From the NCBI RefSeq assembly GCF_044324785.1, contig NZ_CP172127.1: a stretch of DNA of 64,000 bases. The stretch is one strand, 5' to 3'. Position numbers and translations under genes: made by a program. Each line of letters starts with the position of its first letter. The first letter of the stretch is position 1. The notes under the pieces are model-generated. The model saw only the letters and a list, made by a program, of their open reading frames with translations. It was not told the origin of the DNA and made no database searches. This document shows positions 16,203 through 16,697 of the stretch, piece after piece. The stretch comes from Escherichia coli. Its GTDB lineage: Bacteria > Pseudomonadota > Gammaproteobacteria > Enterobacterales > Enterobacteriaceae.

Positions 16203-16697
16203 TTAACGAACCGTCCATGCAGGGCTGAAATCCTCTTCCTGAAACAGCTCTGTCAGCCCGCTAATCTGTTTCAGCCTCAGCACTTCATCCTGGTCCATGC
16301 CCAACTCTGTGCCAATACGCTCATCTGTCCAGCCCAGACGTGAGAGGTCCCTGACAATGTCAGACATTGACGTTACCTGGTGTTTTCCCCTGGCACGGTT
16401 ATGCCGTATGGTTGCGGCAATACGTGATGCCTGTCCCTTTCTCTCTGGATTAATACAGGCCACTGGCAGCCAGCCCTTCAGACGTTTTCTCGTATCCGCT
16501 TTCCTGCCCAGCAACTGACGATGAAAACCATCCACGACCAGATAATGCTCCTTCTCTTCCGAAACCACCACAGGCTGCGTGAATCCATCCTGCTCCAGTG
16601 AATGTTTAAGCAGTTTTTTTTCACTGGAAGACATGACATTGGGATTGTAATCGTTGGCCACCACCTCATCCGCTTTCACCCACAACACACAATCCAC
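16203..16697 (-). CDS. ParB/sulfiredoxin-like nuclease-domain protein (IbrB-like)
   Basis: 164-aa ORF with a ParB-type motif (LVVDGFHRQLL) and a C-terminal HTH-like region; family assignment from memory only. Confidence 0.5.
   Translation of the reverse strand: MDCVLWVKADEVVANDYNPNVMSSSEKKLLKHSLEQDGFTQPVVVSEEKEHYLVVDGFHRQLLGRKADTRKRLKGWLPVACINPERKGQASRIAATIRHNRARGKHQVTSMSDIVRDLSRLGWTDERIGTELGMDQDEVLRLKQISGLTELFQEEDFSPAWTVR

Follow-up and report, generated by a model that had tools for sequence, protein, structure and literature searches.

The open reading frame (ORF) on the minus strand at 16203..16697 of the window, by which we mean the whole 64,000-nucleotide stretch of E. coli DNA analyzed here, is very probably a non-functional, 5′-truncated remnant of ibrB. 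The remnant itself extends over 16203..16721 (minus strand) and corresponds to codons 43–214 plus the stop codon of the 214-codon gene, as judged by tblastn, alignment and the RefSeq annotation in strain XDL. The missing 5′ end of ibrB, together with the whole of its partner gene ibrA, lies in 3,029 bp that are present in the intact island and absent from the window, where the remnant directly abuts the terminal repeat of an IS3-family element.

The original prediction described an intact orphan gene initiating at a GTG codon, with IS3 situated 26 bp upstream of this start codon in place of the promoter. The ORF itself was confirmed: it comprises 164 codons with a GTG at its 5′ end in the ORF list, and its product contains a DGFHR motif (native residues 106–110) and a weak match to Pfam ParB_N (E 4.6e-4, 20.6 bits, under the gathering cut-off of 26.3). 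The GTG (16695..16697, minus strand), however, aligns to Val51 of the 214-residue IbrB and is not the native start. Translation upstream of position 16697 remains open into the neighboring IS element, and IbrB homology continues to 16721 (residue 43), ending at the IS end. By tblastn, 16203..16721 is 100% identical to residues 43–214 of WP_000502867.1, of which the ORF read from the GTG accounts for residues 51–214. The gene is thus cut between codons 42 and 43, and the spacing from the GTG to the IS is 24 bp (16698..16721) rather than 26. An AGGAG motif 3 nt upstream of the GTG lies within the native ibrB coding sequence. The remaining 164–172 codons contain no frameshift or stop and retain the whole ParB-N-like core and the C-terminal helix-turn-helix (HTH) region.

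Existing annotations of this sequence vary. In strain XDL the identical locus is recorded by RefSeq as an ‘IbrB-like domain-containing protein’ pseudogene, ‘missing N-terminus’. Elsewhere the remnant is annotated as a coding sequence, as a ‘hypothetical protein’ on 31 contigs and as a ‘ParB/RepB/Spo0J family partition protein’ in two genomes. The remnant is already known as a RefSeq pseudogene in identical genomes, and represents ordinary decay in an IS-riddled E. coli island. Its interest for annotation is that a sequence-only reading yields a plausible 164-residue “orphan regulator”, where comparison with the intact locus shows a deletion remnant, so that no regulatory role should be attributed to the ORF.

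The intact arrangement is found in SFE8 and TUM1886, which carry the same island, approximately 99.9% identical on both sides, with a full-length ibrB (214 residues, WP_000502867.1). In the intact island, ibrA lies upstream of ibrB, overlaps it by 16 nt and encodes a 408-residue protein annotated as a phosphoadenosine phosphosulfate reductase. This protein matches Pfam PAPS_reduct (1e-17) and DUF3440 (5e-34), the IbrA architecture. BLAST of the intact loci (L003 and L002) against the window showed that L003 1..9022 corresponds to window 7702..16721 and L003 12052..17022 to window 16720..21690, leaving 3,029 bp of the intact arrangement (L003 9023..12051) unrepresented. The lost DNA comprises ibrB codons 1–42, all of ibrA, 266 bp upstream of ibrA and approximately 1.4 kb of older IS and intron debris.

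The deletion junction lies at 16720..16722, with ibrB sequence reaching 16721 and the IS terminal repeat beginning at 16722. Two base pairs, AC (16720–16721), are common to both parental sequences and leave a 2-bp ambiguity in the breakpoint. The intact sequences read ...AAAAGGGCTGAC/CTCATGC... and ...GCGCATAC/TGATCTTACCC... (slash, breakpoint), and the junction in the window reads ...AAAAGGGCTGAC/TGATCTTACCC.... One breakpoint falls exactly at the left terminal repeat of the IS3-family element, and the element and its right flank are unchanged, which together form the signature of an IS-end-anchored deletion. The claim that IS3 had replaced the promoter of the gene did not survive this comparison, since the break falls inside the coding sequence, at codon 42/43, and the 3,029-bp deletion took ibrA as well.

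The neighboring element occupies 16722..20234 (plus strand), has the ends TGATC...GATCA and is disrupted by a group II intron, as delineated from its terminal repeats and RefSeq transposase fragments. It opens at 16722 with TGATCTTACCCAGCAATAGTGGACAC, and its left terminal repeat, TGATCTTACCC..., is unique in the window. An intact orfA of 99 residues (16784..17083, plus strand; ORF list and RefSeq) is followed by an orfB that is interrupted after ...WVGDITY by the intron (17483..19752, plus strand, boundaries approximate, from Rfam and sequence). Rfam Intron_gpII matches 19666..19752 (domain V/VI, 64 bits), and the reverse-transcriptase/maturase ORF at 18139..19380 is a RefSeq pseudogene with an internal stop. 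The 3′ part of orfB, encoding the integrase core, resumes at 19753..20204 (plus strand; ORF list, RefSeq and sequence). The element belongs to the IS3 family by its terminal inverted repeats (TG...CA), its orfA/orfB pair, of which orfB is split by the intron, and its DDE integrase core. The original identification was thus right in placing an IS3-family element just upstream, from 16722, but the first 70–90 nt of the element are only ~84% identical to RefSeq-named IS3 and ~95% identical to ISEc16. Just past the right end of the IS, at 20235..20321, a second copy of the intron 5′ region, 91% identical (compare 17514..17600), lies in reverse complement, so that a second intron copy abuts the IS and the mobile elements are nested.

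The comparison shows that the ancestral island carried a two-gene module, ibrA-ibrB, transcribed from upstream of ibrA, and that a deletion anchored at the left end of the neighboring IS3-family element removed the 3,029 bp. Such a deletion could have arisen in one step, through one-ended intramolecular transposition by the resident IS, or in two, if another IS copy inserted first and IS–IS recombination followed. In the two-step variant, a second copy of the IS would have inserted at codon 42/43 of ibrB, and recombination between the direct IS repeats would then have deleted the interval. Over the 5 kb to the right of the junction, the window shows four differences from SFE8, three of which lie within the first 108 bp of the IS (16734, 16820, 16829); of its five differences from TUM1886 over this distance, three likewise fall there. 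This clustering would fit a left IS end derived from a different IS copy. However, the three SNPs could also reflect gene conversion or subsequent mutation in one lineage or the other, and the predicted intermediate, with the IS at the site and ibrA retained, was found in none of the 5,426 complete genomes searched with a chimeric IS-right-end/ibrB query (≥80% coverage). We give the two-step variant somewhat under an even chance.

A 140-bp junction query found the identical junction in 22 of the 5,426 complete E. coli genomes, in every case at 100% identity, which argues that the event was single and recent. It follows that the absence of mutations in the remnant is uninformative. A longer query of 1,061 bp, covering the ORF and its flanks, likewise gave 100% full-length matches in at least 20 complete E. 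coli genomes among the matches listed. The island segment is carried by approximately 54 complete genomes in total, and thus approximately 32 of them keep the intact arrangement. The locus offers a clean, datable case of an IS-end-anchored deletion inactivating ibrAB in an island of extraintestinal/avian-type E. coli.

The ibrAB module is widespread outside this island. DNA related to the window copy is present in 2,028 of the 5,426 complete E. coli genomes: in ATCC 25922 and ST131, ibrAB lies next to cobUST (~97% DNA identity), and in O157:H7 it lies in the cah island (~89%), with a PerC-family gene after ibrB. The remnant was checked for the same kind of neighbor, but its small downstream ORFs (15809..16163) are not PerC-like. 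Protein identity to the remnant is 98% for ATCC 25922 and 91% for O157:H7 SS52. In Shiga toxin-producing E. coli (STEC), the gene next to perC has been named “ibrB, immunoglobulin binding regulator” (PMC7649339, citing Sandt et al. 2002, J Bacteriol 184:3640). Strain 23CRST013 (NZ_AP045773.1; L010 5999–7860), which carries the same truncated island copy, has a second ibrAB beside cobUST, in which ibrA is intact and ibrB contains an internal stop. The internal stop indicates independent decay of ibrB, and suggests that the ibrAB module is dispensable and decaying in these lineages.

Pfam and NCBIfam hold no curated IbrB model and gave only sub-threshold ParB_N and Noc matches, so that family membership rests on orthology and synteny. 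On these grounds the original assignment to IbrB proved correct, and the remnant is almost certainly orthologous to IbrB of the IbrAB module, given the 100% identity to residues 43–214 of WP_000502867.1, the 91% identity to the O157:H7 protein and the overlap with ibrA in the undeleted island. Linkage of IbrA and IbrB also holds at greater distance: in three of three distant relatives (37–39% identity), a gene with PAPS_reduct and DUF3440 domains is found no more than 1.5 kb away on the same strand, in phage-like surroundings. Full-length IbrB matches phrog_2159 (E 1e-87) and IbrA matches phrog_2302 (E 2e-83).

Two other ParB-like assignments were considered and rejected by profile. For partition ParB, TIGR00180 (parB_part) scored 13.6 bits against a cut-off of 58.45 and TIGR04285 (Noc) 23 bits against 315; no ParA is annotated beside ibrAB in the four contexts examined. 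For DndB/DndC phosphorothioation, IbrB has no PADLOC match, DndB included, and IbrA matches DndC only at E 9e-4 and 9e-3. PADLOC made no defense-system assignment for ibrAB, with only weak domain matches for IbrA (BrxP 2e-7, DndC 9e-4). The assignment to IbrB, as opposed to a plasmid-partition or DNA-modification protein, was thereby upheld.

We compared the remnant with full-length members of the family. In E. coli, Salmonella and other Enterobacteriaceae, nearly all close homologs measure 212–214 residues. A search of 1.84 billion cluster representatives returned 904 clusters at E ≤ 1e-10, and full-length members usually align from approximately residue 22–29 of the query. In an alignment of 50 members (35–51% identity), residues ~31–50 are conserved as LNxxRxxLHxxSPFxxxP, with P45 and P50 present in ≥90%, and D106, G107 and R110, from the DGFHR motif, are invariant. 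AlphaFold2, run on the 50-member alignment, gave a compact model (pLDDT 92, pTM 0.85) with predicted N-terminal helices at residues 7–21 and 26–43 (pLDDT 97–98), followed by a ParB-N-like core and a C-terminal helical region. Both predicted N-terminal helices are removed by the deletion. The remnant lacks residues 1–42, or 1–50 if translation begins at the GTG, and so falls short of the full length of 212–214 residues.

Comparison of the IbrB model with the PDB using Foldseek placed it closest to Noc, ParB-CDP/CTPγS and KorB (probability 1.0, 150–170 aligned columns), with the match covering both the N domain and the HTH; sulfiredoxin and a serine kinase matched more weakly and over the core only. 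In predicted structure, IbrB resembles a nucleotide-binding domain of the ParB/Noc/KorB type joined to a DNA-binding HTH domain. The ParB/Noc/KorB proteins are CTP-dependent DNA clamps with the same predicted arrangement of an N-terminal nucleotide-binding domain and an HTH (Foldseek E 1e-6), and KorB is also a transcriptional regulator. In contrast to these clamps, to which its identity is 14–20%, IbrB has DGFHR in place of the ParB GERRxR box, terminates just behind the HTH with no C-terminal dimerization domain, and occurs outside a ParA/parS context. Its N-terminal helical hairpin is family-specific, and its partner is the IbrA enzyme. The DndB/DndC and BREX BrxP systems resemble IbrB/IbrA in using a ParB-like protein and/or a PAPS-reductase-like PP-loop ATPase, but IbrB has no DndB match, the matches of IbrA are at the domain level and no other dnd or brx genes are adjacent. 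A literature search for a modern mechanism of IbrAB or DUF3440 yielded nothing useful. IbrB probably works on DNA jointly with its enzyme partner, IbrA.

Measured against the IbrB of an intact module, the window copy belongs to the same sequence family but has lost its promoter, its start codon with the rest of codons 1–42, and the partner gene ibrA. Using IbrA as a tblastn query, we found no ibrA-like sequence adjoining the remnant or anywhere in the 64-kb window (best E 0.08), in agreement with the original prediction that an ibrA neighbor was missing. A consensus scan of the minus strand from the ORF to 17100, which includes the left end of the IS, detected no sigma-70-like promoter, and the IS genes are transcribed away from the remnant. 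The remnant thus appears to have kept neither its native start codon nor a promoter or partner gene, and would be silent or, at best, yield a truncated protein lacking the conserved N-terminal helical hairpin. IbrAB activity cannot come from the window locus.

It could be argued that the locus encodes an intact stand-alone IbrB-like regulator, its promoter replaced by IS3, that perhaps regulates the Eib-like adhesin 37 kb away. An uninterrupted ORF, a GTG with AGGAG upstream, a ParB/Srx-type DGFHR motif and a trimeric autotransporter with an Eib-like anchor in the window are all compatible with such a regulator. However, IbrB homology runs 24 bp beyond the GTG to the IS end, the native protein is 50 residues longer, and the lost segment is conserved and predicted to be structured in a family whose close members are almost all 212–214 residues. 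Nor is there an outward promoter-like site in the scanned interval, ibrA is absent here though linked to ibrB even in distant relatives, and the adhesin stalk is only ~28% identical to its EibD equivalent. The comparison with the intact locus already contradicts a stand-alone regulator, which we regard as extremely improbable.

A different possibility is that read-through or fortuitous transcription yields a truncated product, which would bind DNA in ParB-like fashion without a partner or with a dominant-negative effect, or would cooperate with an ibrA located elsewhere in the genome. The complete ParB-N core and HTH and the SD-like AGGAG would permit this, and at least one genome with the junction, 23CRST013, has a second ibrA at its cobUST locus. 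Against it stand the lack of a detected promoter, the loss of the conserved N-terminal hairpin and the internal stop in the second ibrB of 23CRST013, which suggests that the module is dispensable there. Given any transcript across the region, the intact frame and the AGGAG may afford a small chance of a truncated product, but one with a function of this kind is very unlikely. We therefore retain the reading of a non-functional ibrB remnant and infer, with good support from the sequence comparison and the predicted structure, that its activity has been lost.

The ibrAB pair reportedly activates prophage eib adhesin genes, ibrA and ibrB acting together. The window contains a YadA-like trimeric autotransporter adhesin of 421 residues (53366..54631, minus strand), which the original prediction had described as Eib/YadA-like. 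It is of YadA type (Pfam YadA_anchor, 2e-16), and alignment to EibD reveals an Eib-type anchor joined to a non-Eib passenger. The best local alignment to EibD is 36% identical over 343 residues (EibD 211–511, E 6e-49). The identity is concentrated in the anchor, at 67% over EibD 421–511 and 72% over 436–511, and is only ~28% over EibD 160–300 and ~28% over 301–420 (stalk). EibC and EibD, by contrast, share 87% identity overall and do not differ from approximately residue 234 onward. When the adhesin was compared with the solved EibD fragments, 2XZR alone appeared, at E 0.14. Judged by these alignments, the description holds for the YadA-type architecture and the anchor, whereas the passenger diverges: the adhesin is Eib-like in its membrane anchor only and is not an Eib ortholog. 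Since only the anchor is Eib-like, immunoglobulin binding cannot be inferred for it. The exact 421-residue sequence is recorded on a single contig.

The adhesin gene is immediately followed by one for a 151-residue sigma-70 region-4-like HTH protein (52849..53304, minus strand; Pfam Sigma70_r4_2, 1.7e-7). Over its full length this protein shows weak similarity to ORF-156D, which follows eibD in phage P-EibD (22% identity, E 2e-4). The Eib adhesins of the ECOR-9 prophages (EibC/D/E) thus share with the window adhesin its architecture, a related anchor and a small HTH-type gene downstream (compare orf-156). They differ from it in the head and stalk, which hold the Ig-binding regions of EibD and are ~28% identical between the two, and in that the window gene is not in a prophage. 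The adhesin and the small HTH gene (also L007 975–3069) may form a cassette that eib loci share. The adhesin passenger is a mosaic between strains, the protein measuring 421 residues in the window, 480 in XDL (L004 14672–16114) and 546 in SFE8 (L009 17764–19404). Between the window and XDL, only the 3′ 650 bp of the adhesin gene are ~99.6% identical, within a 1.4-kb block that runs through the HTH gene.

Lacking ibrA and retaining only part of ibrB, the window cannot encode regulation of the adhesin by IbrAB. Before the deletion, as the SFE8 order shows, ibrAB and the adhesin were co-resident on the island, and this co-residence leaves room for a speculative regulatory link in intact islands, though not in the window. 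That IbrAB is the native activator of the island adhesin cassette in undeleted islands such as that of SFE8 is improbable. If it were true, the 22 genomes with the deletion would represent a naturally occurring ibrAB knock-out lineage in which adhesin expression is altered.

The island around the remnant is saturated with IS debris. In SFE8 it runs, with other genes and IS elements in between, through ynjBC, a CP4-44-like block, the YadA-like adhesin, the HTH gene, iuc/iut, sit, sodC, a nest of IS elements and ibrAB. On the downstream side of the remnant, window 12000..15710 is an IS66-family element split by an IS21/IS100-type element (istA/istB at ~12813..14613), so that IS debris encloses the remnant from either side. 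Beyond the island in XDL (L004 1–5791), the genes dptFGH, for phosphorothioation-dependent restriction, lie approximately 9 kb from the YadA-like adhesin gene, separated from it by integrase remnants and by genes for a phosphoethanolamine transferase and an AAA-domain protein. When this stretch of XDL was searched against the window by BLAST, dptFGH had no match, and these genes are thus not at the right end of the window. Between 30000 and 50500 the window carries a 20-kb block with fdrA, ylbE, a xanthine permease and related metabolic genes, and the equivalent place in XDL and SFE8 is instead occupied by iuc/iut (aerobactin). In the closest complete genome, NZ_CM163382.1, the 20-kb block lies megabases from the ibrB remnant, which suggests an IS-mediated rearrangement.
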